A DNA stretch of 18,094 nucleotides, taken from a virus. The stretch lies in UHGV virus genome UHGV-0036730. One strand, 5' to 3'. The position numbers were made by a program, and so were the translations under genes. Each line of letters opens with the position of its first letter. The stretch's first letter is position 1. Positions 874-17,721 of the stretch are shown piece by piece. Under the pieces are notes generated by a model. The model saw only the letters and a list, made by a program, of their open reading frames with translations. It did no database searches and was not told where the DNA came from.

Positions 874-2903
874 TTATGCTGATTCCCGGTTTTCGTTAAC
901 TTTGACTGTGACCGTATCAAGCAGTACCGGATACGTCGCTTTTGCCCCCGTGATATCTGTCAGCGTCAGCGTATCTGCTGTAAAGCCATCATTTGTCCAC
1001 ATCACAAGGTCAAACGCNNNNNNNNNNTAAAGCCATCATTTGTCCACATCACCAGGTCAAACGCAGACTGCTCTGTATCATCAATCACCGGCACCACTTT
1101 TTCGCTGTTATTTCCCGCAAAGCGGAAAACAACTGTATGCCAGTTATGGTCAAATGCCCCAAATGTGCCCAGTTGCGCATTCGACTCCCCCTTGTGGTAC
1201 ATCAGATTCAGATTTGATGCATCCGTCTGAAGGAAGAAGGACGCCAGCATGCTGTTTGCTGTCGCGCCTGACGCCCACTGCGACACCGGCCAGTACAGAC
1301 CAAAGACAAACTGACCGTTAACCAGTTCGACACCCTCCGGGATCTTAAACCGCACGGCAATTTCACCTCCCTTACTGAGAAGATTTTTTGCCTCCTCCAC
1401 CGCAACAGTACGGAACATCTTCCAGGAGGTCAGTTTACCCGGCTGTTTTTCCAGTCGCAGCGCCTTCCTGCCACTGTCATCCGTCACAGTGCCTTTACCA
1501 CCGGACGCATTCCACTGCTGCTCTGTCCATACACCACTGCCACTGTTCGCATCATATCCGGCCACCATTCTTGTTACGGCTTCAGTATGACCGCCTGCAG
1601 AAGTACCTGCACCCTGCTGTTGCGTCGGACCCGCAGAGCCAGACTGTGCATCCCCCGTGGAGGCTGGCGTGGTCGCCAGCGGTGCAGACTGCCCGCTCAG
1701 GAACGGCAGCAAACGCCCGGCTCGCACCAGTATCTCTCCTGCCAGCCGATCTGAAACAATGCCTCTTCGCGCCCAGGAGCTGAAGTGCGTTTTACGATCG
1801 GCTGTCGTCCAGTTACCATTACTGCGTGACGCGGCACCATAGTATCCCGCCGTGATAATGTCCGGATCTTCTGACGGCTCGTTTGTCGGCACATTCGCAC
1901 CATGCTCATCCGTCATCAACGGCACAAAGTGAATATTCTGCGCCGCCTTGCCTTTATAGCCTCCGTAAACCGCCTCATACTGCACTGCATACTTCGCCTT
2001 CCAGTCGTACGTGGTGTCACCGCAAATCCACGGGACGCCGGACGTTGTCCCGCCAATACACTGGTCTGCAATATCTGCCAGGTCTGCACGGTATTTATTT
2101 ACCATGGCAAGAAAAAGTGCATTGTGCTCTGCATGTCTCCCCGAACTGACATCTTTTTCCCCCTGCATCCAGATCACCGACAACAGCACGTTTTTCGGAT
2201 TTTTCTTCAGGGCTGCACGCGTTCTGCTGACCAGGTCACGATACAACGGTTTATCCACCCCCCACAGGGAAGAGCCCGCTGTCGCACCCGACGCCTCATT
2301 AAACGCGCCCTCTGCTCCCGCAGTAAATCCCGAATCGCCACGTCCACACGGGACAAGAAGGATCCCCGCACGGGCAGGCATAAACGGCAGCAGTTTTTTG
2401 GCCACATGCAGGGCATGCCCCACACAGCCATACTGCCCTTTATTGAGGTCTGCTTTCGGGTGATTCAGATTACTCACGTCCTGCACATCATGCAGACAAT
2501 GGTCTGCAGGAATAATGTCGTTATATGCACAGGCCGCACCGCCCGGTGTCACCGTGCTGCGACGCGCCAGTTGCTTAATACGCGGGTCAGGACGATCATA
2601 CGTATCCGGCAGCGGCAGCCCCTCGCCAAAAGACATCGAGTTGGACTGCCCGGCCAGCGCAATGACAAAGTAATATTCCGGTTCGCTGGTGGTGCTGATA
2701 ACAGCGCCACCATCACCCGACGGTTGCACCACCACCGGTGTGGTGACATCACCTTCCGCCGCAATGGCCTGCATCAGGGTATAGGGCGTGATGGCCACCG
2801 GACTGCCAAATGGCTGCCACCCCTCCTTCAGTTTTTGAGTCAGTCGCTCCGCAAGGTCTGACGGCGACGCCGCCCTGACCACGTCATAGTGTTTAAATGC
2901 CAT
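874..2903 (-). CDS. nanS-p: Prophage sialate 9-O-acetylesterase NanS-p (SGNH/sialate O-acetylesterase family); reading frame interrupted by an assembly gap
   Basis: Track ORF 1002..2903: N-terminus MAFKHYDVVRAASPSDLAERLTQKLKEGWQPFGSPV… is the recalled signature of Stx-prophage NanS-p. GGAGG ribosome-binding site 5 nt upstream of the ATG at 2903. The ORF runs into the N-run at 1018..1027; if the duplicated 37-nt flank is collapsed, my manual translation continues in frame (…WTNDGF-TADTLTLTDITGAKATYPVLLDTVTVKVNENRESA) to a TAA at 874..876, so the 3' end at 874 is inferred. Confidence 0.75.
1018..1027. other. Run of 10 N (scaffold/assembly gap) flanked by a near-identical 37-nt duplication (981..1017 vs 1028..1064)
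   Basis: Direct reading: 'taaagccatcatttgtccacatcacaaggtcaaacgc' + 10 N + the same 37-mer with one mismatch (a/c at 1006 vs 1053). Confidence 0.9.
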
Positions 2904-3097
2904 GAATCCTCCCGGTCGGGATAATGTTGTGAGTCAGATGAGGGAACGGGCTGAAGTCCGGAAGTTACAGGACAATGGCAGGAGGAAGACTACAGCCCGC
3001 AATACGAAAAAGGCCGCGCTATTGCGCAGAGTGATTACTGTCGGATATTATTCGCCAGCTGAAATATTACTTCACGTTTTGTTGTTTATTCCTTGCC

Positions 3098-3127
3098 GCC
3101 CGCGTCTCCCAGCGCGGGCTTTTTTTG
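3098..3127 (+). terminator. Rho-independent terminator (plus strand)
   Basis: Stem gcccgcg (3098..3104) / cgcgggc (3113..3119), 8-nt loop, then a T-run 3120..3126. Confidence 0.5.
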
Positions 3128-3128
3128 T

Positions 3129-3157
3129 CCATAAGAAAGCCCCTCCGGAGAGGGGCT
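3129..3157 (-). terminator. Candidate rho-independent terminator (minus strand), back to back with the plus-strand terminator
   Basis: Perfect 8-bp stem agcccctc / gaggggct with cgga tetraloop (3138..3157); on the minus strand it is followed by a U-rich tract (uucuuau). Confidence 0.35.
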
Positions 3158-3475
3158 GGAGAGTGGCGCTATGTGCCATTGCATGGTGCCGGGTGCCTCC
3201 CGGTGAGTTCAGTATCAGCACCTGAACCCGCACAGAAAGGATAAGGGTCGGTGACAAAACACCAGTTGCTGATTGCCCCTCCGCACAGGGGGATTCACCA
3301 TGCCAGTTTCTTTTAACAAACTCCCCGCAAACCAGACAACAGTCAACCGCCTGAATTGTGAGGTATTTAAAAATTTCAACGGGTAACTGATACCCTGCTA
3401 ATCGCCTGATGCTTTCTTTTTCAGCAACGGGGAAGCAACAACCACCACACCCACCAGCCGCCCATTTACCACAAA

Positions 3476-3500
3476 TAAAAAAGCCTTCACTGCGGAAGGC
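3476..3500 (-). terminator. Rho-independent terminator (minus strand) directly after the 95-aa ORF
   Basis: Minus-strand hairpin gccttc-cgcagt-gaaggc followed by uuuuuuauuugu; the stop codon of the 3487..3774 ORF lies in the stem. Confidence 0.5.
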
Positions 3501-3774
3501 GTCTGTAACAACCGAACTGATAGTCTGCCAGACCCGCCATAACCAGCTGGGTCAGTATTAACTGGCAGCGTTCGCGTGAAAGGTAAGTATTCTGCGCAAT
3601 CTCCCCGACTGTCGCCGGGTAGGTGACGCTTAATTCATTAAACACCACTCTGGCGGTTTCTGTCATATCCTGCTGTTTTAGCATGTCTTTTTCCCTTTTC
3701 CGGTTAACGTGACATACCAATAACTCTTGTCTAAAAAGCCAGCAAGCTGAAAGACAGGTATTCACCACCAGCAC
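3487..3774 (-). CDS. Hypothetical protein, 95 aa or shorter, first ORF after tR'
   Basis: Track ORF. Alternative starts at 3684 (MLKQQDMTET…) or 3666 (MTETARV…). It has its own terminator. It occupies the slot where Stx phages carry tRNAs and stxAB. Confidence 0.35.
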   Translation of the reverse strand: MLVVNTCLSACWLFRQELLVCHVNRKREKDMLKQQDMTETARVVFNELSVTYPATVGEIAQNTYLSRERCQLILTQLVMAGLADYQFGCYRRLPQ

Positions 3775-3803
3775 GTTTACTGTACTGATGCGATTTCAGT
3801 CAT

Positions 3804-3830
3804 AAAAAACCCGCCAGGCGGCGGGTTTAA
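3804..3830 (-). terminator. tR'-like rho-independent terminator downstream of Q
   Basis: Minus strand: aaacccgccgcc-tggcgggttt hairpin followed by uuuuuau. About 55 bp downstream of the Q stop, as for lambda tR'. Confidence 0.55.
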
Positions 3831-3885
3831 GTTGTGTGGCGTAGTAACCACTCTTAACATACTGACATACTTTTTGCGGACCGCG
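3831..3885 (-). promoter_or_regulatory. Presumed late promoter pR' / qut region (positional inference)
   Basis: The interval between the Q stop (3886) and the tR'-like terminator is where lambdoid phages carry pR' and the Q-utilisation site. I could not pin -10/-35 hexamers. Confidence 0.3.
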
Positions 3886-4278
3886 CTAATCATTTTTTAC
3901 TTTTTTGGGCAGCCAGTCGTCCATCTCCAGCCTTACACCCAGCATCGACAGACATCCGTCAATAAATCCTTCAGCAATCTGCATCTCAATTCGTATTGCC
4001 TTTTCGCTCTTCTTTCTTGTTCTGGCAATCTGCCTTTTTGATATGCGCAGCAGATAATGAGCTACCAGCAGCGAATACTCGTCCGGTTTTTTCTTCTTCA
4101 GGCGCGTAAGGCAGTTTTCGATGATAAGGCCGTCATCATCGCTGCAGGCCGGGCGAGGTTTAGCGGTGGATGGTAAAAGGCCTTTAAATCCAGCAGCTAT
4201 CGGAGAATAGTCCACCCCGGTGTTACCACTTGCCGCCCATGCGCCCCAGCGTTCAAGCACCTGCTGAATATCACGCAT
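3886..4278 (-). CDS. Antitermination protein Q, phage 21 / QuuD-like family
   Basis: Track ORF 3886..4383 trimmed to the ATG at 4278: [37 protein letters not shown]… matches the recalled QuuD/Q21 N-terminus (MRDIQMVLERWGAWAA…). Overlaps the ninH stop by 8 nt; followed by a tR'-like terminator. Confidence 0.7.
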   Translation of the reverse strand: MRDIQQVLERWGAWAASGNTGVDYSPIAAGFKGLLPSTAKPRPACSDDDGLIIENCLTRLKKKKPDEYSLLVAHYLLRISKRQIARTRKKSEKAIRIEMQIAEGFIDGCLSMLGVRLEMDDWLPKKVKND

Positions 4279-4471
4279 CAGAGTCTTTACCCTTATCCCA
4301 TCCACGATGGACCATAAGGACACCGTTGACGACGGCGTGCCGTTTGCCTTCTTTATCGCCAATATATTTTCTGACCGTGGCACGATTACAGTTCAGTATT
4401 CGGGCCACTTCGGTCTGATTTCCATATGCCTCAACAAGCATGTCAGGAATGATTTTTACGGTGAACGTCAT
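4271..4471 (-). CDS. ninH: NinH
   Basis: [58 protein letters not shown]… is near-identical in pattern to recalled lambda NinH ([36 protein letters not shown]…). Confidence 0.8.
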
Positions 4472-5488: not shown

Positions 5489-6459
5489 CAGGCAGCCTCC
5501 GCTTTGAATTTGCGCGTCAACACATGTTCACGGGCTTCACACCCCTGAATGAGCATGTCGTTAAAATCCGGCAAGTCAGGCCAGCGAATGCTGACCTTCT
5601 CAACGTCATTACGACTCATGAGATTCTTATGCCCACATTTAAAGGCAGCCGCCAGACCTGCGCCGTGCTCATCATTGTCTGCAAAGATAATCAGGTGATT
5701 AACGCCTGGTGGCGCAATAAACTTCTCCATAAAACCGGAGTTCATTGTTGACCACACATTGCAGCGGAAGATTTGACGGCATGAAAGCGCAGTTTCGATA
5801 CCCTCGGCTATCCCCAGAGTGGACGACACCGGATACAGGCGTATTGCCACCGATTTGGCATGCTGCAAACCAGGCAACTCCTGTAGCGCAGTCATTTTTT
5901 TAGCCGCCTCTACATTCGCCTTGCGATCACCATCCAGCAACGTACGATGCAGATAGCAAAGAGAACCTTTGTCATCTGTTGCAATGGCGTAAATTGCCTG
6001 ATATTCGCGCCCGCTGGCGATCTGACGGTCACAGAAACGCACGGATTCGGTCGGTAACTGGAGTATTCCCCTCCCCTGCAGGTACGCCTCACCTGTTGTG
6101 CCCCGCAGACACGGGAGTCCGGCAAACTTATCCATGACCCGCTCCCGTTCTCTGGCAATATCCGTTACAGTGCGTCTGGCATGCCCTCTCTTCCAGGTAT
6201 TACCAACCAGTCGATCGACTTCATCGCACAGATCAACCCAGGGCTTACCCGTGGCAAGTTGCAACAACTTCATCCCGTCCCCGTGACCACAGACACAAAT
6301 CCATGAACCGGAACCATCCTTATCATCACAGCGAAATTTACCTCTGGCACCACATATCGGGCAGGGGCCGCTATAATGTTTCAAGCCAGTAACAGGAGGC
6401 ATGCCGTAATATTCAAAAATTCGCCCCCAATGCCCGGCCGCTGCCTTCTTAGTCTGCAT
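5488..6459 (-). CDS. DNA primase, P4-alpha-like zinc-ribbon + TOPRIM domain protein
   Basis: N-terminal CPICG…CDDKDGSGSWICVCGHGDG zinc-binding motif; C-terminal IIFADNDEHG (TOPRIM DxD-type acidic motif). Overlaps the helicase stop. Confidence 0.65.
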   Translation of the reverse strand: MQTKKAAAGHWGRIFEYYGMPPVTGLKHYSGPCPICGARGKFRCDDKDGSGSWICVCGHGDGMKLLQLATGKPWVDLCDEVDRLVGNTWKRGHARRTVTDIARERERVMDKFAGLPCLRGTTGEAYLQGRGILQLPTESVRFCDRQIASGREYQAIYAIATDDKGSLCYLHRTLLDGDRKANVEAAKKMTALQELPGLQHAKSVAIRLYPVSSTLGIAEGIETALSCRQIFRCNVWSTMNSGFMEKFIAPPGVNHLIIFADNDEHGAGLAAAFKCGHKNLMSRNDVEKVSIRWPDLPDFNDMLIQGCEAREHVLTRKFKAEAA

Positions 6460-7969
6460 GCTGGCCTCCTGTCATGGCTTTCTTGCGCCCTTTGGCATAG
6501 GCAATGGTCTTTGACTTGATGAAGTTGTACACTTCAACTGAGGTTTGCAGCGGCGCATTACTGAAGCCTTTAGGCCACACACCGAACTTCTCCTTGTAGG
6601 TATGAGCGCACCATCCGTCACTCAGGGGTTTACCCGTCGCGTTGCGGTAATTCTGATAACCCTTGATCTCACTCCACCAACGCTGTTTTTCCTCACGGGT
6701 GTATTCGCGTTTCCCTTTGTTGACGCGTGAAAGCTTACGATCGCGATCTGTCGCCACGTCATCACCACCAAGTGGGCGAAATCCACATTTGGGACACATG
6801 TGTACACCAGCAGGCTTCATGAAGTGGCATTTGGGGCATTCTCTGGGAAGTTTTTCAGCTTTAACCTCGCCACCGCCAGCAGACGCTTTCATTCCGTCAT
6901 TTTTTCCCGGAAGTTCGTCATACTCGATATCCTCGGGGAAGCCCAGCCGATGAACCGTACCGGAATGGTCGAAAATCAATGCGCGTTTTTTACCAGACGC
7001 AGTACGTAACGCTCTCCCGATGCACTGCAACCAGCGGATTTCTGATTTGGTCGGACGGGCGTAGATCAGGCAGCGAACATCGCTGTCAAATCCCGCAACC
7101 AGTACGCCGACGTTGACAATTATTTTGGTCGCACCATCTTCAAAACGGCGAATGATATCCTGCCGTTCATCATGGGGGGTATCTGCCGTCATCACCTCTG
7201 CGCCAATGCCAGACTGTAAAAACTCACGGGTAACAAAGTTCGCATGAGCCACGTTCACGCAGAAGCAGATCGTCGGTAAATCCTCGCCATTCTCAAGCCA
7301 GTTGCTAACGATATCGCCAACCAGATCCGAACTCCCCATGATGGATGCGAGCTGTTCCTCGTTGTAATCCCGTCCAAATACGGTGTTACTGGTTTTTACG
7401 CCAGTCAGATCAGGCATTGAGGGGGCAAAAAACTCGTAATCGCTCAGATCACCACGCTGAATAAGTTCACGAATCGTTGTAGGCTTGATCAGGCATTCGT
7501 AGTACTTCCCCATCCAGGCTGCGAATGGGGTGCCGGAAAGTCCAAGAACCCTGATGTCTCTGTCCCGGATAACCTCAAGTAACGCACGACGCTTCATGTG
7601 TGCTTCATCGATGATCAGCAGATCGATGTTGTCAGGAAACTCACGACGGATCAGCGTGTCGGCACTGGCAATCTGAATCAGTCGTGACGGGTCATAGTTA
7701 GGGTGATCACGCCATACAAAACTGATTTCTTCCCACGGTAAACCGTATTCGGTGAAACGTTCCGCTGTCTGGTTCAGCAGGATGGTGTACGGACAGACAA
7801 ACATCACCCGCATACCACGTTCAACCATTCCGGCGGTGACGAATGCTGCAAGACCAGTTTTGCCAGAGCCAGTGGGTGCGTACATCAAGTACGTGCGATG
7901 CTGTTTCCACTGGTGCCGCAGCTGGTTTAAACCGCGCTCCTGAGCAAAGTTTGGGATTATTTTCAGCAT
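6449..7969 (-). CDS. Superfamily-2 DEAD/DEAH-box replicative helicase with C-terminal zinc ribbon
   Basis: Walker A APTGSGKT; DEAH box LLIIDEAHM; C-terminal CPKCHF…CPKCGF. 506 aa, operonic with the primase. Confidence 0.7.
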   Translation of the reverse strand: MLKIIPNFAQERGLNQLRHQWKQHRTYLMYAPTGSGKTGLAAFVTAGMVERGMRVMFVCPYTILLNQTAERFTEYGLPWEEISFVWRDHPNYDPSRLIQIASADTLIRREFPDNIDLLIIDEAHMKRRALLEVIRDRDIRVLGLSGTPFAAWMGKYYECLIKPTTIRELIQRGDLSDYEFFAPSMPDLTGVKTSNTVFGRDYNEEQLASIMGSSDLVGDIVSNWLENGEDLPTICFCVNVAHANFVTREFLQSGIGAEVMTADTPHDERQDIIRRFEDGATKIIVNVGVLVAGFDSDVRCLIYARPTKSEIRWLQCIGRALRTASGKKRALIFDHSGTVHRLGFPEDIEYDELPGKNDGMKASAGGGEVKAEKLPRECPKCHFMKPAGVHMCPKCGFRPLGGDDVATDRDRKLSRVNKGKREYTREEKQRWWSEIKGYQNYRNATGKPLSDGWCAHTYKEKFGVWPKGFSNAPLQTSVEVYNFIKSKTIAYAKGRKKAMTGGQHAD

Positions 7970-9181: not shown

Positions 9182-9895
9182 ATGAACATGAAAAAGAAAC
9201 CGTTAACCCCTGAGCAACTGGAAGACGCCAAGCGTCTGAAAAGTATTTTTAACGCTAAAAAGAAAGAGTTAGGCCTGTCGCAGGAATCATTAGCCTATGA
9301 ATTAGGTGTTACCCAAAGCGCTGTTAATCAGCTAATGGCTGGCATCAACGCCATAAATGCCAGCCACGCAGCACAGCTTGCTAAGATACTGAATGTAAAG
9401 GTCGGAGATTTCAGTCCCAGCCTGGCAAAATCTATTGCAGAAATGGCGCTCGCAATTGAAGAGCCATTAACTCGTGTCCCCGCTTACGAATATCCGTTAC
9501 TCTCCTGCGTACAAGCTGGCGCATTCTCAATGGATGATATTTCGTACACCGCAAAAGATGCGATTAAATGGATCTCCACCACCACAAAAGCCAGTGACAG
9601 GTCGTTCTGGCTGGAGGTCAAGGGGCATTCAATGACCGCACCGCAGGGTGGTAAACCCAGCTTCCCTGAAGGTATGCTGATACTCGTTGACCCTGAACGG
9701 GAAATCGAGGATGGCGATTTTTGCGTGGCCCGAATGAACGGCGATGAATTTACCTTCAAACGATTCATTCGTGAGAGCGGTAAAGCGTACCTGGAGCCGC
9801 TCAACCCACGATTCGACATGATTGAGTGTAACGAAAACTGCCAGTTTGTCGGAAAGGTCATCAAATCGCAGTGGAATGATGATACTTTTGATTGA
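9182..9895 (+). CDS. cI: CI repressor, lambda CI family (HTH DNA-binding domain + S24 LexA-like autocleavage domain)
   Basis: 237 aa; collinear with recalled lambda CI along the whole length (KKKPLT.EQLEDA.RLK…LGLSQES…FSP……EYEYP…VQAG.FS…[33 protein letters not shown]……GDFC.AR..GDEFTFK…). Confidence 0.9.
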
Positions 9896-10185: not shown

Positions 10186-10332
10186 TACGTTCAGACAGAA
10201 TTTTTGGCCTGTTGTTAACTAGTAACCTGAAGAGACGTTTGGGTGATGTTTGGGTGATTTTAGTTGTGATTAACGAAAACTATGGTGCAACATCTTATAG
10301 TAAATTGTTAATATAACAAGGTATTGTATCAA

Positions 10333-11235
10333 ATGAGCCAAAATCTTGATTCAACACTAGAAACATACATCTCTTGGCAGTTAGAGCAATTTAAGGATAA
10401 ATTTTTCCCAAACTGTGACGTCATTGCGTACTACGGTGGCATCTTTCCATGGTCAAAAGAAGTTTACCAGCCAAAACTTGAAGCTATTGGTGAGATGGCT
10501 AACAGTCGTACCAATAAATTTCTTGTTATTATACTCAATACAAACGGTGGTTCTGTTGAGTCTGTAGAAAAAATGGTAGAAATTACAAGGCATTTCTACC
10601 AAGAGGTATATTTTATCATTCCAGACATGGCTATGTCGGCAGGTACAATATGGTGCATGTCTGGAGATAAAATTTACATGGACTATGCTTCTTCATTAGG
10701 ACCTATTGATCCTCAAGTGCAATCGTCGGACGGTAAATGGGTTCCCGCTTTGGGATACCTTGATAAAGTTGAAGAAATGATTAATAAATCCAGAGAAGGA
10801 ACCATTACCCAAGCTGAACTGATGATGCTTAGTCAGTTAGATCTGGCGCACTTGCGGAGATATGAGCAAGCCAGAGAACTATCAATAGACTTGCTTAAGA
10901 AATGGCTTGTGGAGTATAAATTTAGAGAGTGGACAGTTCATCAGGGTAACACAAAACGAGGAAAGCTAGTTACCAAGAGGGAAAAGGAAGCGAGGGCTAA
11001 AATGATCGCTACCGCTCTTAGTGACAACGGAAAGTGGCATTCTCACGGAAGAACGATAGGAATAAACACTCTTATCAATGATTTAAGGATAAAAGTAGAA
11101 GACTTTACATACGATAAAGATTTTAGCATGGCGTTAAAAAATATACATAACGTCATTAATGAATACATGTATAAAACAAATCGACAGGTTCTTGTTCTGT
11201 CTTCTTTCCCTTTTCCAGAACAAAGTGAGTCATAA
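10333..11235 (+). CDS. ClpP/crotonase-fold serine peptidase, S49 (SppA) / SDH-like family, no signal peptide
   Basis: Track ORF 10324..11235 (TTG) trimmed to the ATG at 10333. ILNTNGGSVESVEKMVEIT aligns with the ClpP INSPGGVITAGMSIYDTM region; IIPDMAMSAGTIWCMSGDKIYMD carries the A-x-S-x-G catalytic-serine motif (ClpP GQAASMGA / SppA AASGGY). The ClpP His position is IDPQ here, so a Ser-Lys (S49-like) mechanism is inferred. Lies in a locally AT-rich block. Confidence 0.6.
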   Translation: MSQNLDSTLETYISWQLEQFKDKFFPNCDVIAYYGGIFPWSKEVYQPKLEAIGEMANSRTNKFLVIILNTNGGSVESVEKMVEITRHFYQEVYFIIPDMAMSAGTIWCMSGDKIYMDYASSLGPIDPQVQSSDGKWVPALGYLDKVEEMINKSREGTITQAELMMLSQLDLAHLRRYEQARELSIDLLKKWLVEYKFREWTVHQGNTKRGKLVTKREKEARAKMIATALSDNGKWHSHGRTIGINTLINDLRIKVEDFTYDKDFSMALKNIHNVINEYMYKTNRQVLVLSSFPFPEQSES

Positions 11236-11522: not shown

Positions 11523-11867
11523 TTAAGCCCCTGTGTGATGGTTGACTTCTTTTTCCAGCGCCTTATTAACAAAGGCGTTCAGTGATAAATCTTCTTCCAT
11601 CGCCATTTCTGCTACCCGACGATGCAGTTCTGGATCAAGCCTGACGTTAAACACACCTTTAAACGGGGTATCAGGCTCCTTTCCATCCTCCACACAAGAC
11701 TGTAAATACAGCTCAACCGATGTCTTAAACTCCTGTTCCAGTTCAGCTAATGTAGAAGCCTCATAAGTTACCAGGTCTCGAATAAACGCCAGTTTTCCGT
11801 ACAGGATATTATTTTCAAAATCTGGTTCTACTGTACCTAAATACCCTTTATATTTTAGATGCTTCAT
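11523..11867 (-). CDS. hicB: HicB-family antitoxin (N-terminal HicB fold + C-terminal ribbon-helix-helix)
   Basis: 114 aa; YKGYLGTVEPDFENNILYGKL…EASTLAELEQEFKTSVELYL… then GVFNVRLDPELHRRVAEMAMEEDLSLNAFVNKALEKEV, the characteristic HicB RHH tail. ATGA overlap with the upstream hicA. Confidence 0.75.
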   Translation of the reverse strand: MKHLKYKGYLGTVEPDFENNILYGKLAFIRDLVTYEASTLAELEQEFKTSVELYLQSCVEDGKEPDTPFKGVFNVRLDPELHRRVAEMAMEEDLSLNAFVNKALEKEVNHHTGA

Positions 11868-12112
11868 AATACCCCAGCCTCTTTCAGATTCTGTTTAATC
11901 GCTTTCAGCGTTCCACCTTTAATATAACTTTCTGGATGTGGGCGATGCATTAATATGGTGTGGTTGATTTCAGCATTGAAAAACCGCACTCTTGAGCCCT
12001 GCATTTCCTTTTTGACATCTCCCAGAGAGGAAAACAAAACGACCAGCTCATCCCATTCAAACGTTTTTTTACTGTTTAAAAACTTTTCCAGTAGCTTATC
12101 TGCTTTCCCCAT
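11864..12112 (-). CDS. hicA: HicA-family toxin (mRNA interferase)
   Basis: Track ORF 11864..12118 (GTG) trimmed to the ATG at 12112. …LLEKFLNSKKTFEWDELVVLFSSLG…HTILMHRPHPESYIKGGTLKAIKQNLKEAGVL follows the HicA/YcfA pattern. Upstream of and overlapping hicB. Confidence 0.7.
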   Translation of the reverse strand: MGKADKLLEKFLNSKKTFEWDELVVLFSSLGDVKKEMQGSRVRFFNAEINHTILMHRPHPESYIKGGTLKAIKQNLKEAGVL

Positions 12113-12268
12113 ACCCACATAATCTCATCTTCGCTACATTGCAACTAATTATAGTTACAGACAGTGTTTTTGTCAAAAGCCACCAAGCCCGCTGGGTTCT
12201 CTTTGACTGTTCGCTGCTTTTCCTGGTGTTATCCGGGGGCTTTTCCCTCACGCCAAATCTCACACAGA

Positions 12269-14348: not shown

Positions 14349-14630
14349 ATGAACGCATACCTCACCTGCGACCGCATAGAGGAGCGTCGCTGGATTAATC
14401 AGCAAATTCAGGATGAAAAGGATAAATGGATTGATGATCGGGCGCAGGAGCTTATCAGCATGTTCCCCGATAAACCATTGCTTATGAGCAGCCTTTTTTT
14501 ACCCAAAGAAGCCCAACTGGCACTCACTGGCGAAAAAGCTGAAGAGGCGTACAACGATTATATCTCAGCGATCGCCTATGCTCGGGCGGAAGAAGAATGG
14601 GAGAGAAAATTCTCCCCCTGTCCTTTCTGA
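14349..14630 (+). CDS. Gam-like host-nuclease (RecBCD) inhibitor, short form
   Basis: MNAYLTCDRIEERRWINQQIQDEKDKW… parallels the recalled N-terminus of the short lambda GamS form ([31 protein letters not shown]…). Lies immediately upstream of the recombinase-exo pair, in lambda gene order. Confidence 0.5.
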   Translation: MNAYLTCDRIEERRWINQQIQDEKDKWIDDRAQELISMFPDKPLLMSSLFLPKEAQLALTGEKAEEAYNDYISAIAYARAEEEWERKFSPCPF

Positions 14631-14646
14631 TTTTCAGGACCAAAAA

Positions 14647-15597
14647 ATGTTCGATATCGTTGAATTTGTTAAGCAGCAGGAGCGCTTTTTCTGCGAGGCA
14701 TTAACTGAACCGACGCTGACATGGGCGAAGGAAAGTCAGTTTGCAATTCAGCAATTCCAGAAAAATGCCTTTCTGGCTGACACAGCACGGGCAAATCTGC
14801 CCAGCGCACAGAACGCTATCATCAATGTTGCCGCCATAGGCATAACCCTGAACCCGGCCAGCAAGCTGGCGTATCTGGTACCACGAAAAAAGGCTGTATG
14901 CCTGGATATCAGTTATATGGGGCTTCTGCATCTGGCACAGGTCACAGGAGCCATTCAGTGGGGGCAATGCAAACTTGTTTACGAGAAGGACATTTACGAG
15001 TCCAACGGTATTGACTGCGCCCCCACGCACAAATACAACCCATTCGTAGACAGGGGCGCACGCATTGGCGGTTATTGTGTCGTAAAAACATCCGAAGGCG
15101 ACTATCTGACCGAAGAGATGAGCAACAGGGAAATCGAGGTCATCAGGGCGTGCAGCAAAGCCGGAAATAACGGAGGAAGTAGCCCGTGGGATAGTTTCCC
15201 CGATGAAATGGCCAGAAAAGCCATTGTTAAGCGCGCCAGCAAATACTGGCCCCGTCGCGATCGCCTGGATACAGCTATCGACTACCTGAACACTCAGGCC
15301 GGTGAAGGTATCATCCTGAATGCTGATCACATCCCTGAGCGTGACGTCACTCCCGCATCAGATGAGATTATCAATGAGATCACTCAGGCAATCACCGAAA
15401 TTAACAAGACATGGGATGACCTGCTTCCCGTATGTTCCAAAACATTCCGTCGCACGATTGCATCACATGAAGCTCTCTCTCAGGAAGAAGCTGTCAAAAC
15501 GCTTGATTTTGTCAAAAAGAAAGCTGCCAGAAACAAGGCCACGGCGGAAGCGAAAGTTCACGCCACCACGGAAAATAACAGCGAGGCCGTGTCATGA
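14647..15597 (+). CDS. Single-strand annealing recombinase: RecT-family core with a lambda Bet-like C-terminal tail
   Basis: Track ORF 14578..15597 trimmed to the ATG at 14647 ([11 protein letters not shown]…). The core carries RecT-like blocks ([24 protein letters not shown]; [16 protein letters not shown]; [14 protein letters not shown]). The last ~70 aa ([64 protein letters not shown]) closely track the recalled lambda Bet C-terminus. Stop overlaps the exo start. Confidence 0.75.
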
Positions 15598-16274
15598 CAC
15601 CAGAAATTATTCTCCAGCGAACTGGCGTGGATATTACCAGCCTCGACCAGGGCGATGATGGATGGCACAAGCTGAGACTCGGTGTTATCACTGCTTCAGA
15701 AGTTCACAACGTCATAGCCAAACCACGTTCAGGCAGCAAATGGCCTGATACAAAAATGTCATACTTCCACACCCTGCTGGCTGAAGTTTGTACTGGCGTG
15801 GCACCGGAAGTTAACGCTAAGTCGCTCGCATGGGGAAAGCAATACGAAGATGATGCCCGTGCCCTCTTCGAATTTATCGCGGATGTTACCGTCGCGGAAA
15901 CGCCAATAATTTTTCGTGACGAAAGCATGCGCACCGCCTGCTCTCCCGACGGTTTATGCAGCGACGGTAACGGTCTTGAGCTTAAATGCCCCTTCACTTC
16001 CCGCGACTTCATGAAGTTCCGGCTTGGCGGCTTTGACGCTATCAAGCCTGCTTACATGGCCCAGGTGCAATTCAGCATGTGGGTTACAGACAAGGACGCC
16101 TGGTACTTCGCCAACTACGACCCACGTATGAAGCGTGAAGGCCTGCATTATGTCGTGATTGAGCGGAATGAAAAGTACATGGCGAATTTTGACGAGATGG
16201 TGCCGGAGTTCATCGAAAAAATGGACGAGGCACTGGCTGAAATTGGTTTTGTATATGGGGAGCAATGGCAATGA
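15594..16274 (+). CDS. exo: Lambda-type exonuclease (Red-alpha / Exo, YqaJ-like)
   Basis: 226 aa, near-identical over its length to recalled lambda Exo (MTPDIILQRTGIDV…[55 protein letters not shown]…). Confidence 0.9.
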
Positions 16275-16429
16275 AGCATCCTCACGATAATATCCGGGTA
16301 GGCGCGATCACTTTCGTCTACTCCGTTACAAAGCGAGGCTGGGTATTTCCCGGCCTTTCTGTTATCCGAAATCCGCTGAAAGCACAGCGGCTGGCTGAGG
16401 AGATAAATAATAAACGGGAGAGTGTATGA
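16271..16429 (+). CDS. Small hypothetical ORF (52 aa) between exo and the 250-aa ORF
   Basis: ATG at 16271 overlaps the exo stop (ATGA); its stop overlaps the next ATG (ATGA). [52 protein letters not shown]. Gene status uncertain; below the ORF-track cut-off. Confidence 0.3.
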
Positions 16430-17178
16430 TTCATTTTCACGGTGGTCCAATAACTCCCGATACCTGTGCGTTGAAAGCCTGGAAAGGCAGACACGCATTC
16501 ATCAGTTTTGCTAATCCAGCTCAGATTGATCTGGCTTCCGAAGTCACCCAATCATTTGCTCTTGATAATGGTGCATTCACATTCTGGACAAAAAACAAGG
16601 CCATAGACTGGAATGAATATTACAGATTTGTTGAACGCTGGGGTAATCACCCTCGTTTCTCATTCGCGGTTATCCCGGATGTTATCGGCGGAACCAGTGA
16701 AGAGAATGACGCCCTGATTGCGGCATGGCCTCACGGTAAATTTATTGGTGCTCCGGTGTGGCACATGAACGAACCAGATGAGCGATTTATTCGTCTGTGC
16801 CATGAGTTTCCCCGCGTCTGCATCGGCTCGATGGGGGAATACGATGCAAAACGACCGAGAGCGTGTCGGGCTAAACTACGCGATCTTATACGTCATGTTG
16901 TAGATCAGTACGGCTACCCAATCACCAAGATTCATGGGTTACGGATGTTAAATAAAGACATTTTTACTCATGTACCGCTTTCGTCTGCAGACAGCACGAA
17001 CGTCGCAAGAAATATAGGCATCGACAAATCCTGGGTAGGTTCGCCATATGCTCCCGCAAGTAAAGAAACCCGTACGCAAGTTCTTGTGGAACGCATTGAA
17101 TCATTCAACAGTGCCAGTTCACTTAATTACAACGCTGAACGGGACGTCTTTACCCCTCAACTGGCATTCGAAGTGTGA
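16426..17178 (+). CDS. Conserved phage early protein of unknown function, 250 aa (tentative TGT/DpdA-like motif, see findings)
   Basis: Track ORF; translationally coupled upstream and downstream. Contains ALDNGAFTFW, reminiscent of the transglycosylase DSGGFQ motif, but the assignment is speculative. Confidence 0.5.
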   Translation: MIHFHGGPITPDTCALKAWKGRHAFISFANPAQIDLASEVTQSFALDNGAFTFWTKNKAIDWNEYYRFVERWGNHPRFSFAVIPDVIGGTSEENDALIAAWPHGKFIGAPVWHMNEPDERFIRLCHEFPRVCIGSMGEYDAKRPRACRAKLRDLIRHVVDQYGYPITKIHGLRMLNKDIFTHVPLSSADSTNVARNIGIDKSWVGSPYAPASKETRTQVLVERIESFNSASSLNYNAERDVFTPQLAFEV

Positions 17179-17185
17179 GGCCAAT

Positions 17186-17401
17186 ATGACAATAGAACAT
17201 AATAACGCCCTTCGCAGCATTGCCCGTCAGGCTAATTCTGAAATCAAAAAAGCCAGACAGCAGTTTCCGGATAAAAACGTCGATGACATTTGCCGTAGCG
17301 TACTGAAGAAGCACCGCGAAACGGTAACGCTGATGGGATTCACACCGACTCACTTAAGTCTGGCAATCGGTATGTTAAACGGCGTCTTTAAGGAACGGTG
17401 A
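17186..17401 (+). CDS. Hypothetical early protein, 71 aa
   Basis: Track ORF 17048..17401 trimmed to the ATG at 17186, which has a GAGG ribosome-binding site that overlaps the upstream stop. Confidence 0.4.
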   Translation: MTIEHNNALRSIARQANSEIKKARQQFPDKNVDDICRSVLKKHRETVTLMGFTPTHLSLAIGMLNGVFKER

Positions 17402-17499
17402 ACATGAAAAGCAAAATCATCAGGGAGCTACAGGCTCCTTTTTTATTATTCGCATTCACCCTCAAGCGTATTAACCAACAATTCAGGGATTAATGGAAG

Positions 17500-17721
17500 A
17501 TGGCAGACCTCATTGATTCAGCATCAGAAATTGAAGAATTACAGCGCAACACAGCAATAAAAATGCGCCGCCTGAACCACCAGGCTATATCTGCCACTCA
17601 TTGTTGTGAGTGTGGCGATCCCATAGATGAGCGAAGACGCCTGGCCGTTCAGGGTTGTCGGACTTGTGCAAGTTGCCAGGAGGATCTGGAGCTTATCAGT
17701 AAACAGAGAGGTTCGAAGTGA
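17500..17721 (+). CDS. TraR/DksA-family C4 zinc-finger protein (lambda Orf73-like)
   Basis: 73 aa with C-x2-C-x17-C-x2-C (CCECGDPIDERRRLAVQGCRTCASC), the same size and architecture as TraR. Confidence 0.65.
   Translation: MADLIDSASEIEELQRNTAIKMRRLNHQAISATHCCECGDPIDERRRLAVQGCRTCASCQEDLELISKQRGSK

Follow-up and report, generated by a model that had tools for sequence, protein, structure and literature searches.

We analysed a DNA stretch of 18,094 nucleotides from the virus genome UHGV-0036730 (the window, a term used here for the whole stretch), which is part of a mosaic lambdoid prophage resembling Shiga toxin (Stx) phages. At 16426..17178 on the plus strand lies a dpdA-like gene, an open reading frame (ORF) of 250 codons from ATG to TGA, which was confirmed. 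An earlier reading of the window made without database searches (the sequence-only reading) had suggested from one short motif that the product may be a transglycosylase of the DpdA type. Phage DpdA replaces guanines of DNA by 7-deazaguanine bases, which weakens restriction. Membership in phrog_887, nucleotide identity to phage genes, profile comparison by hhalign and an AlphaFold2 (AF2) model now identify the gene as a homolog of the singleton phage DpdAs, with a product of 250 amino acids.

The gene lies after RecT (14578-15597) and a lambda-type exonuclease (15594..16274, plus strand; phrog_149, E = 1e-62), both assigned by PHROG matches, in the pL early-left 'ea' region; the exonuclease belongs to the same early-left transcription unit. 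The sequence-only reading had placed the gene in a non-essential early region after the exonuclease, and this position is correct. In the close relatives, i.e. the P22-like BTP1, SfI and PhiR5_1, the gene is always found in the early-left 'ea' region as well. The directly preceding gene is DUF1317/orf60a-like (16265..16429, plus strand; 54 amino acids; phrog_1998, E = 6e-33) and is annotated as DUF1317 in SfI and in all listed Escherichia coli genomes with the dpdA-like gene. The dpdA-like ATG overlaps the stop codon of this ORF by 4 nucleotides (ATGA), which makes translational coupling on the upstream side plausible. At the downstream junction a gap of 7 nucleotides separates the TGA (17176-17178) from the start codon, an ATG at position 17186, of an orf61-like gene (17186..17401, plus strand; 71 amino acids; phrog_303, E = 1e-34; 'orf61' in PhiR5_1), and a Shine-Dalgarno-like GAGG spans the dpdA-like stop codon. 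Coupling on both sides, as had been claimed, is roughly right: upstream it is backed by the overlap, but downstream there is a gap without overlap. A consensus scan showed no promoter-like excess in the dpdA-like region. The sole nearby terminator-like hairpin with a T-run, a hit of the consensus scan only, is at 17422..17440 (plus strand) 3' of the orf61-like gene, and the PHROG scan placed a DksA-like zinc-finger gene at 17500-17721.

Window positions 16265-17401 correspond to positions 5840-6976 of PhiR5_1, with the dpdA-like gene between the orf60a-like and the orf61-like gene. In lambda we take this slot to be that of orf63; if so, the arrangement suggests a cassette replacement within a conserved scaffold. 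The RefSeq record of SfI has a 117-amino acid ORF (window 17048-17401, plus strand) that overlaps the last 131 nucleotides of the dpdA-like gene. It is probably an over-extended call, as PhiR5_1 and phrog_303 favor the 71-amino acid orf61-like gene starting at 17186.

Homology to phage DpdA

The window protein matched phrog_887 with E = 2e-99 over residues 1-245. This family also holds the DpdAs of phage CAjan, the Salmonella phage 7-11 and the mycobacteriophage Rinkes as well as a homolog from Caulobacter phage DMCA. We used an alignment of 60 sequences of the window protein's family, the members of which are 31-90% identical to the window protein, a profile of the CAjan DpdA family, a merged phage-DpdA profile and a profile of tRNA-guanine transglycosylases (TGT). 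Comparison of the 60-sequence alignment with the CAjan profile by hhalign yielded a probability of 99.0% and E = 9e-18 over 172 columns. BLASTP of the window protein gave E-values of 1e-36 to the DpdA of 7-11, 2e-11 to that of Rinkes and 1e-4 to that of CAjan. Thus the profile search that the sequence-only reading had named as a check, against TGT and DpdA families, led to phage DpdA. Of these relatives the CAjan enzyme is backed by a dpdA knockout, in which dPreQ0 was wholly lost. The DNA of 7-11 contains dADG at about 0.02% of Gs, and the DpdA of Rinkes is encoded in an operon of ParB-like/FolE/DpdA/QueC/QueD/QueE.

Active-site residues

In CAjan DpdA Asp63 is the base that deprotonates preQ0 and Asp206 is the nucleophile, while Ser64, Phe67, Asp105, His132, Gly153/154 and Phe189 belong to the pocket (Kot et al. 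2020, PMC7544227). In our alignments the equivalents in the window protein were D47 and D189 for the two aspartates and N48, F51, D85, H113, G134/S135 and L172 for the pocket. The motif ALDNGAFTFW (residues 45-54; 16558..16587; this and the following positions are on the plus strand) aligned with LD63S64GAF67 of CAjan. It contains D47, the predicted general acid/base at the end of strand β3, and the predicted base-pocket residues N48 and F51. D85 (16678..16680) was aligned by BLASTP with Asp105 of CAjan and with the Asp of ALDVIG in Rinkes; the pairing with Asp105 is method-dependent, because hhalign and MAFFT shift the CAjan loop by 3 residues. H113 of the motif PVWH (16762..16764) at the end of β5 is a predicted pocket residue and matches His132 of CAjan. 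H170 of the motif KIHGLR (16933..16935) in strand β7 is an invariant histidine equivalent to His187 of CAjan, which is located two residues N-terminal of the pocket residue Phe189. D189 in the motif SADST (16990..16992) at the end of β8 is the predicted catalytic nucleophile. The second catalytic aspartate, the absence of which would have spoken against a transglycosylase, is therefore present; it aligns with Asp206 of CAjan.

Five columns were invariant in the 60-sequence alignment, D47, H170, S187, D189 and S190, and H170 was invariant in the merged phage-DpdA profile, too. Conservation was then counted over 150 representatives of the 50%-identity clusters, with denominators of 120 to 145 depending on the residue. 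D47 was kept in 142/145, A50 in 141/144 and W54 in 131/142 representatives. The corresponding values were 141/144 for D85, 135/138 for H113, 128/138 for G134, 114/126 for H170 and 109/120 for D189. Conservation of pocket residues ranged from 77 to 98%; it was 91-98% for the set of D47, N48, F51, D85, H113, G134, L172 and D189, and the exchanges of S to N and F to L with respect to CAjan are conservative and clade-wide. Because D47 is kept in nearly all representatives ALDNGAFTFW is not a chance motif. The likeness of this motif to the active-site block of TGT, on which the sequence-only reading had been built, was recovered as the sole segment that hhalign aligned of the TGT profile with the merged phage-DpdA or the CAjan profile (LD[NS]GAF with TDSGGFQ), but it is not statistically significant by itself. 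Furthermore, the clade has near-invariant residues of its own, H5, W54, P84, N94 and R173, which are absent from the DpdAs of CAjan and Rinkes.

Predicted structure

An AF2 model calculated from the 60-sequence alignment had a pLDDT of 93.5 and a pTM of 0.89. A first run with a shallow alignment of 20 sequences reached a pLDDT of 58 and was discarded. The model consists of eight strand-helix units forming a (β/α)8 barrel, with D47 at the C-terminal end of β3 and D189 at the end of β8. Only about 60 residues follow β8, and the model has no C-terminal nucleic-acid-binding extension.

A Foldseek search of BFVD with the model yielded 29 matches at E ≤ 1e-3, many of them named 'queuine tRNA-ribosyltransferase', with TM-scores of up to 0.77. 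They originated from phages of Arthrobacter, Microbacterium and Mycobacterium, from a Dinoroseobacter phage and from a Sulfolobales virus; the next match was an uncharacterized 464-amino acid protein of Vibrio phage nt-1 at E = 1.7e-3. The comparison with proteins of the TGT fold was thus positive for the phage transglycosylase models in BFVD, but the match to a canonical TGT in the PDB was weak (see below).

Taken together, phrog_887, hhalign, BLASTP, the catalytic residues and the barrel model support a DpdA-type transglycosylase at the level of phage DpdA. We concluded that the window protein belongs to the phage DpdA family and that by its defining features it is neither a canonical TGT nor a DpdA of the Dpd system.

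Prior cataloguing and distribution

At the nucleotide level the dpdA-like gene shows 100% identity with an Escherichia phage PhiR5_1 gene and 99.7% with gene 34 of Shigella phage SfI, and the protein shares 99.6% of its amino acids with SfI gp34. In RefSeq SfI gp34 (YP_009147480) is a 'queuine tRNA-ribosyltransferase', while in GenBank it is labelled hypothetical, as is the PhiR5_1 copy. Hutinet et al. 2019 (PMC6884629) list YP_009147480 of SfI in their Supplementary Data 1, among 76 DpdA phages without genes for preQ0/G+ synthesis; phage HK106 is on the same DpdA-only list. The gene is therefore already known, its near-identical SfI ortholog having been catalogued as a singleton DpdA in 2019. 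Our literature search found no experimental work on a lambdoid or Stx prophage DpdA, and none on the singleton cluster later than Hutinet 2019.

Copies with at least 99% nucleotide identity were detected in 100 of 5,426 complete E. coli genomes (about 2%). All 100 are chromosomal and 95 are essentially full length; all listed full-length copies adjoin DUF1317, and PGAP annotates the product as 'hypothetical protein' in all listed records. The exact window protein occurs on about 1,000 contigs. Clustering of the wider family at 90% identity gave 6,182 clusters, and at 50% identity 1,639 representatives remained, the named members of the family coming from Enterobacterales and Aeromonas genomes and one Vibrio phage. 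Further carriers are Salmonella prophages of the P22 type (for example BTP1) and one or more Stx1a-converting phages. A 1,719-bp record, OR850331.1 ('Staphylococcus phage SA 1298 Kay'), encodes a protein for which identity to the window protein (68.0%) and bit score are as in several Salmonella P22-like homologs; it is probably mislabelled or a contaminant.

preQ0 supply and genomic associations

The PHROG scan of the window ORFs showed neither FolE, QueD, QueE, QueC nor QueF, and a ParB-like gene is absent from the window as well. FolE, QueD, QueE and QueC are also missing from the complete genome of SfI, in line with its DpdA-only listing. As the phage itself does not encode the biosynthesis, preQ0 would probably be supplied by the host. 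The preQ0 pathway is present in the hosts E. coli and Shigella (Hutinet 2019, PMC6884629). Moreover, 9g DpdA expressed alone in E. coli produced dPreQ0 in 0.3% of plasmid Gs (Hutinet 2019, PMC6884629), which makes the host-preQ0 route feasible.

Several relatives are found next to genes of preQ0 or DNA metabolism. In Caulobacter phage DMCA the homolog begins at the stop codon of a PTPS/QueD gene. In the Drexlerviridae phage Phleasolo it overlaps a gene for a YhhQ-like membrane protein, which matched the annotated preQ0 transporter of CAjan over its full length with E = 4e-6; the label 'VUT family' of this neighbor had no Pfam support, and we accepted the protein only as a homolog of the CAjan transporter. 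The homolog of Pseudomonas phage Epa33 is located directly 5' of a C5 DNA methylase gene. In Pantoea phage AH07 (2182-4256) the homolog overlaps, again by ATGA, the stop codon of a gene for a 440-amino acid ParB-HTH protein, and in Rinkes (1-2560) a gene for a protein with a ParB-like nuclease domain opens the preQ0/DpdA operon. These two ParB-like pairings recall, by analogy, the obligatory DpdA-DpdB partnership of bacterial Dpd systems, where DpdB is a ParB-like ATPase. The AH07 copy is 68% identical to the window protein. In addition, there are two apparent fusions: P0255 (335 amino acids) joins PTPS/QueD (E = 1e-24) and P0236 (421 amino acids) a D12-class Dam methyltransferase (E = 9e-62) to a DpdA-like domain. 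A third candidate, P0261, which carries a tail baseplate-hub domain, was set aside as probably chimeric.

Comparison with known transglycosylases

With phage DpdA (DpdA1 as defined in Hutinet 2019/2023; CAjan gp35, 9g, Rosebush/Rinkes gp3) the window protein has phrog_887 in common and the motifs LD[SN]GAF, D-x-IG, P-x-[WF]-H, I-G-[GS]-M, K-x-H-[GA]-[LF] and S-x-D-S. Like phage DpdA it is barrel-only without a zinc subdomain and expressed with DNA-metabolism genes. On the other hand it is about 40-55 residues shorter at an identity of about 20-26%, and compared to CAjan DpdA it is devoid of the N-terminal extension and of most of the C-terminal helical tail. The clade resides in temperate lambdoid or P22-like phages and not in lytic Queuovirinae. 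The closest proteins with a published context are the singleton DpdAs of 7-11 (AEK81947) and HK106 (YP_007151699) with 35-37% identity, both DpdA-only. Yet 7-11 is a large lytic phage (Moazamivirus), and its DpdA lacks the first ~18 residues (β1) of the window protein. The amide form of the 7-11 modification, dADG, implies an additional activity.

The bacterial DpdA of Salmonella Montevideo is a TIM-barrel DNA transglycosylase that exchanges G for preQ0. In its crystal structure (7UI4) Asp95 is located just before Ins3 (Gly97-Tyr109) in the β3/α3 loop and Asp256 at the start of Ins8, an insertion in the β8/α8 loop, and mutation of Asp95 or Asp256 abolished guanine exchange (Gedara 2023, PMC10164549). 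The placement of these residues matches that of D47 and D189. The bacterial enzyme, however, has about 400 amino acids, carries four insertions including the 128-residue zinc-binding Ins8 and needs DpdB, none of which applies to the window protein. Nor is it part of a Dpd system with dpdC-K and an adjacent DpdB: its neighbors in the window are DUF1317 and the orf61-like gene, and a ParB-like neighbor is seen only in some relatives (Pantoea phage AH07, Rinkes). With the tRNA-guanine transglycosylases (Tgt, ArcTGT; PF01702) the window protein presumably shares the (β/α)8 fold and the double-displacement mechanism. These enzymes have 375-580 amino acids compared to 250 here and act on tRNA, while for the window protein DNA is the expected substrate.

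Evidence against the assignment and controls

A number of results speak against a DNA-modifying DpdA and have to be considered together. In a Pfam scan the window protein had no match at E ≤ 10, PF01702 included, and scans of NCBIfam and of PADLOC with its DpdA model gave no match either. Searches of PDB sequences with hidden Markov models of the 60-sequence alignment and of the merged phage-DpdA profile retrieved no TGT or DpdA entry. The same two inputs gave insignificant scores of less than 2% when compared by hhalign with the γ-proteobacterial TGT profile. The zinc site CxCxxC...H is absent, with no Cys or His after residue 183, and so is the Ins8 subdomain inserted between β8 and α8. In a Foldseek search of the PDB the best matches were mandelate oxidase, tryptophan synthase α, PdxJ and aldolases. 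These top matches are generic TIM barrels with E ≥ 4e-3, TM-scores of 0.4-0.5 and about 10% identity. ArcTGT (1j2b_A) ranked 17th with E = 0.027, a probability of 0.82 and a TMq of 0.39, and Salmonella DpdA 7UI4 was not among the top 50 matches. For the predicted model the PDB search thus supports the fold class only and not TGT specifically. In the apparent fusions P0255 and P0236 the domain is without its first ~40 residues, and both could be frameshift or gene-calling artefacts. Data on DNA modification by liquid chromatography-mass spectrometry or nanopore sequencing were not found in the literature for SfI, PhiR5_1 or lambdoid carriers. Phage Orion, which has a singleton DpdA, showed no 7-deazaguanine and 7-11 only the trace of dADG mentioned above, and a possible functional divergence of singleton DpdAs had been raised before (Hutinet 2019, PMC6884629).

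The sequence-based tests were calibrated with accepted phage DpdAs. The DpdAs of CAjan, 7-11 and Rinkes had no Pfam match either, and the CAjan family is without precomputed Pfam domains. The CAjan profile did not match the TGT profile, and neither the CAjan profile nor Rinkes DpdA found a TGT in the PDB. Because validated phage DpdAs fail the same tests, we regard the Pfam, PDB-sequence and hhalign-TGT results as insensitive rather than negative, and the hhalign result with TGT was not counted against homology as its positive control, the CAjan family, had failed. The TGT profile consists of 21 γ-proteobacterial sequences with 68-98% identity and is too shallow; the zinc ligands C302/C304/C307/H333 of E. 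coli Tgt are invariant in it. The single E. coli Tgt sequence in place of the profile gave insignificant hhalign results as well. A Pfam scan of the 60 family members produced noise only, and phmmer and hmmsearch runs against the PDB, with the window protein, the 60-sequence alignment and the merged phage-DpdA profile, had spurious matches to GCN4, HipT and cellulase only.

Proposed function and alternatives

With a rough probability of 60% we favor the view that the gene encodes a minimal, barrel-only phage DpdA, transcribed from pL, which inserts a host-derived 7-deazaguanine into phage DNA for partial protection from restriction. The proposed steps follow the established chemistry of TGT and DpdA. 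Upon prophage induction or infection the early-left operon, which includes the gene and the recombination genes, would be transcribed from pL. A target guanine of the duplex phage DNA would be flipped into the pocket of N48, F51, D85, H113, G134 and L172, and attack of D189 on C1' would displace the guanine with formation of a covalent enzyme-DNA intermediate. D47 would then take the proton from N9 of the 7-deazaguanine that enters, for which preQ0 is the most likely candidate, and this base would resolve the intermediate and leave dPreQ0 in the DNA. Our results establish the family, the conserved catalytic residues, the fold and the genomic associations; that preQ0 is the substrate and DNA the target, how much of the DNA is modified and the role in anti-restriction are inferred. 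Because the base would be drawn from the host queuosine pathway, a low, sub-stoichiometric and motif-specific modification is predicted, with a low level as in 7-11. The target motifs of CAjan are GA/GGC and that of iggy is GA. The likely benefit would be that progeny phage DNA is partly shielded from restriction in the next host.

An unlikely alternative is that the protein is a true DpdA homolog which has diverged in function. It would retain the double-displacement chemistry but might use another base, act on tRNA of host or phage, work as a DNA glycosylase or set regulatory or anti-defence marks at very few sites. γ-Proteobacterial singleton DpdAs form a separate cluster in a similarity network (Hutinet 2019, PMC6884629), and of the singleton phages tested Orion was unmodified, while 7-11 had traces of dADG. 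The clade-specific residues and the very compact build without a C-terminal nucleic-acid-binding extension would fit as well. Yet conservation extends to the whole guanine/preQ0 pocket and to the two catalytic aspartates, and relatives with E ≤ 1e-33 against the window protein or its profile stand beside or are fused to QueD, the YhhQ-like transporter or DNA methylases. The lack of modification in Orion, moreover, has been attributed to its host, which does not have a preQ0 pathway. A narrower proposal, to which we assign a rather small chance, is that the compact singleton clade, with its more than 6,000 protein clusters from temperate phages of Enterobacterales, Vibrio and Aeromonas, is a functionally shifted transglycosylase and not a bulk anti-restriction modifier. 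It could place a few 7-deazaguanines of host origin site-specifically as an epigenetic 'self' mark, counter Dpd-type or modification-sensing defences or use a non-DNA or non-preQ0 substrate. Such a shift would explain both the absent biosynthesis genes and the clade's own conserved residues H5, W54, P84, N94 and R173.

That the gene is a decaying or inactive passenger (moron) is very improbable. The label 'hypothetical protein' in PGAP records and the position in a mosaic, dispensable region, where other lambdoid phages have other genes, would agree with a passenger, but the full length and the catalytic residues are kept throughout more than 6,000 clusters defined at 90% identity and 1,639 defined at 50%, and the 100 E. 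coli copies, 95 of them essentially full length, are all at least 99% identical. An unrelated small TIM-barrel enzyme of the aldolase, synthase or hydrolase kind with a chance resemblance in DxGxF, to which the non-TGT PDB matches and the missing Pfam and hhalign hits to TGT might point, is hardly credible in view of the 99% hhalign match to a knockout-validated DpdA family with aligned motifs (the D85 loop being offset by 3), the BLASTP values of 1e-36 and 2e-11 for DpdAs whose phages have modified DNA or a complete preQ0 operon, the phage DpdA models as BFVD neighbors and the low TM-scores and identities of the generic PDB matches.

Other features of the window

The PHROG scan of the window also identified a NanS-p-like esterase, Q, NinG, NinB, a primase and a helicase, the cI repressor, a serine protease of the SDH type and a HicB-like antitoxin next to an ORF of HicA size, and in addition Rha, Kil and a Gam-like inhibitor. 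The antiterminator Q (3886-4383) and the NanS-p-like SASA esterase (1002-2903) are about 1 kb apart on the minus strand (window 1002-4383). The interval between them is without stx genes, and ARAGORN found 0 tRNA genes. As related prophages carry stx1 or stx2 at this place, the window represents a relative of Stx phages that lacks stx. At 10324-11235 on the plus strand, downstream of cI (9182-9895), there is a gene for a protein of 303 amino acids (phrog_11747), which PGAP named 'SDH family Clp fold serine proteinase' in a related prophage. Its gene fills the slot of rexAB in lambda and SfI and is possibly a prophage-encoded defence or exclusion gene. The HicB-like antitoxin (phrog_9151, E = 4e-50) and the HicA-sized ORF upstream of it form a toxin-antitoxin pair in the immunity/early-left region (11523-12118, minus strand).

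Significance

The finding contains nothing conceptually new; its modest interest lies in the biochemistry of a minimal, widespread and host-dependent clade. Bacterial genome annotation still labels this widespread dpdA-like gene as 'hypothetical protein'; the value of the finding is in the transfer of annotation. At 250 residues the protein is about the smallest DpdA/TGT-type barrel in our comparison and could serve the engineering of DNA base exchange. If the enzyme indeed puts 7-deazaguanines from the host into DNA upon induction, the DNA of widespread temperate phages in enteric pathogens would be hypermodified at a low level. Consequences would be expected for the restriction barriers that limit lysogenic conversion, for nanopore base-calling and for susceptibility to defences that depend on modification, such as the GmrSD-like GrwAB.

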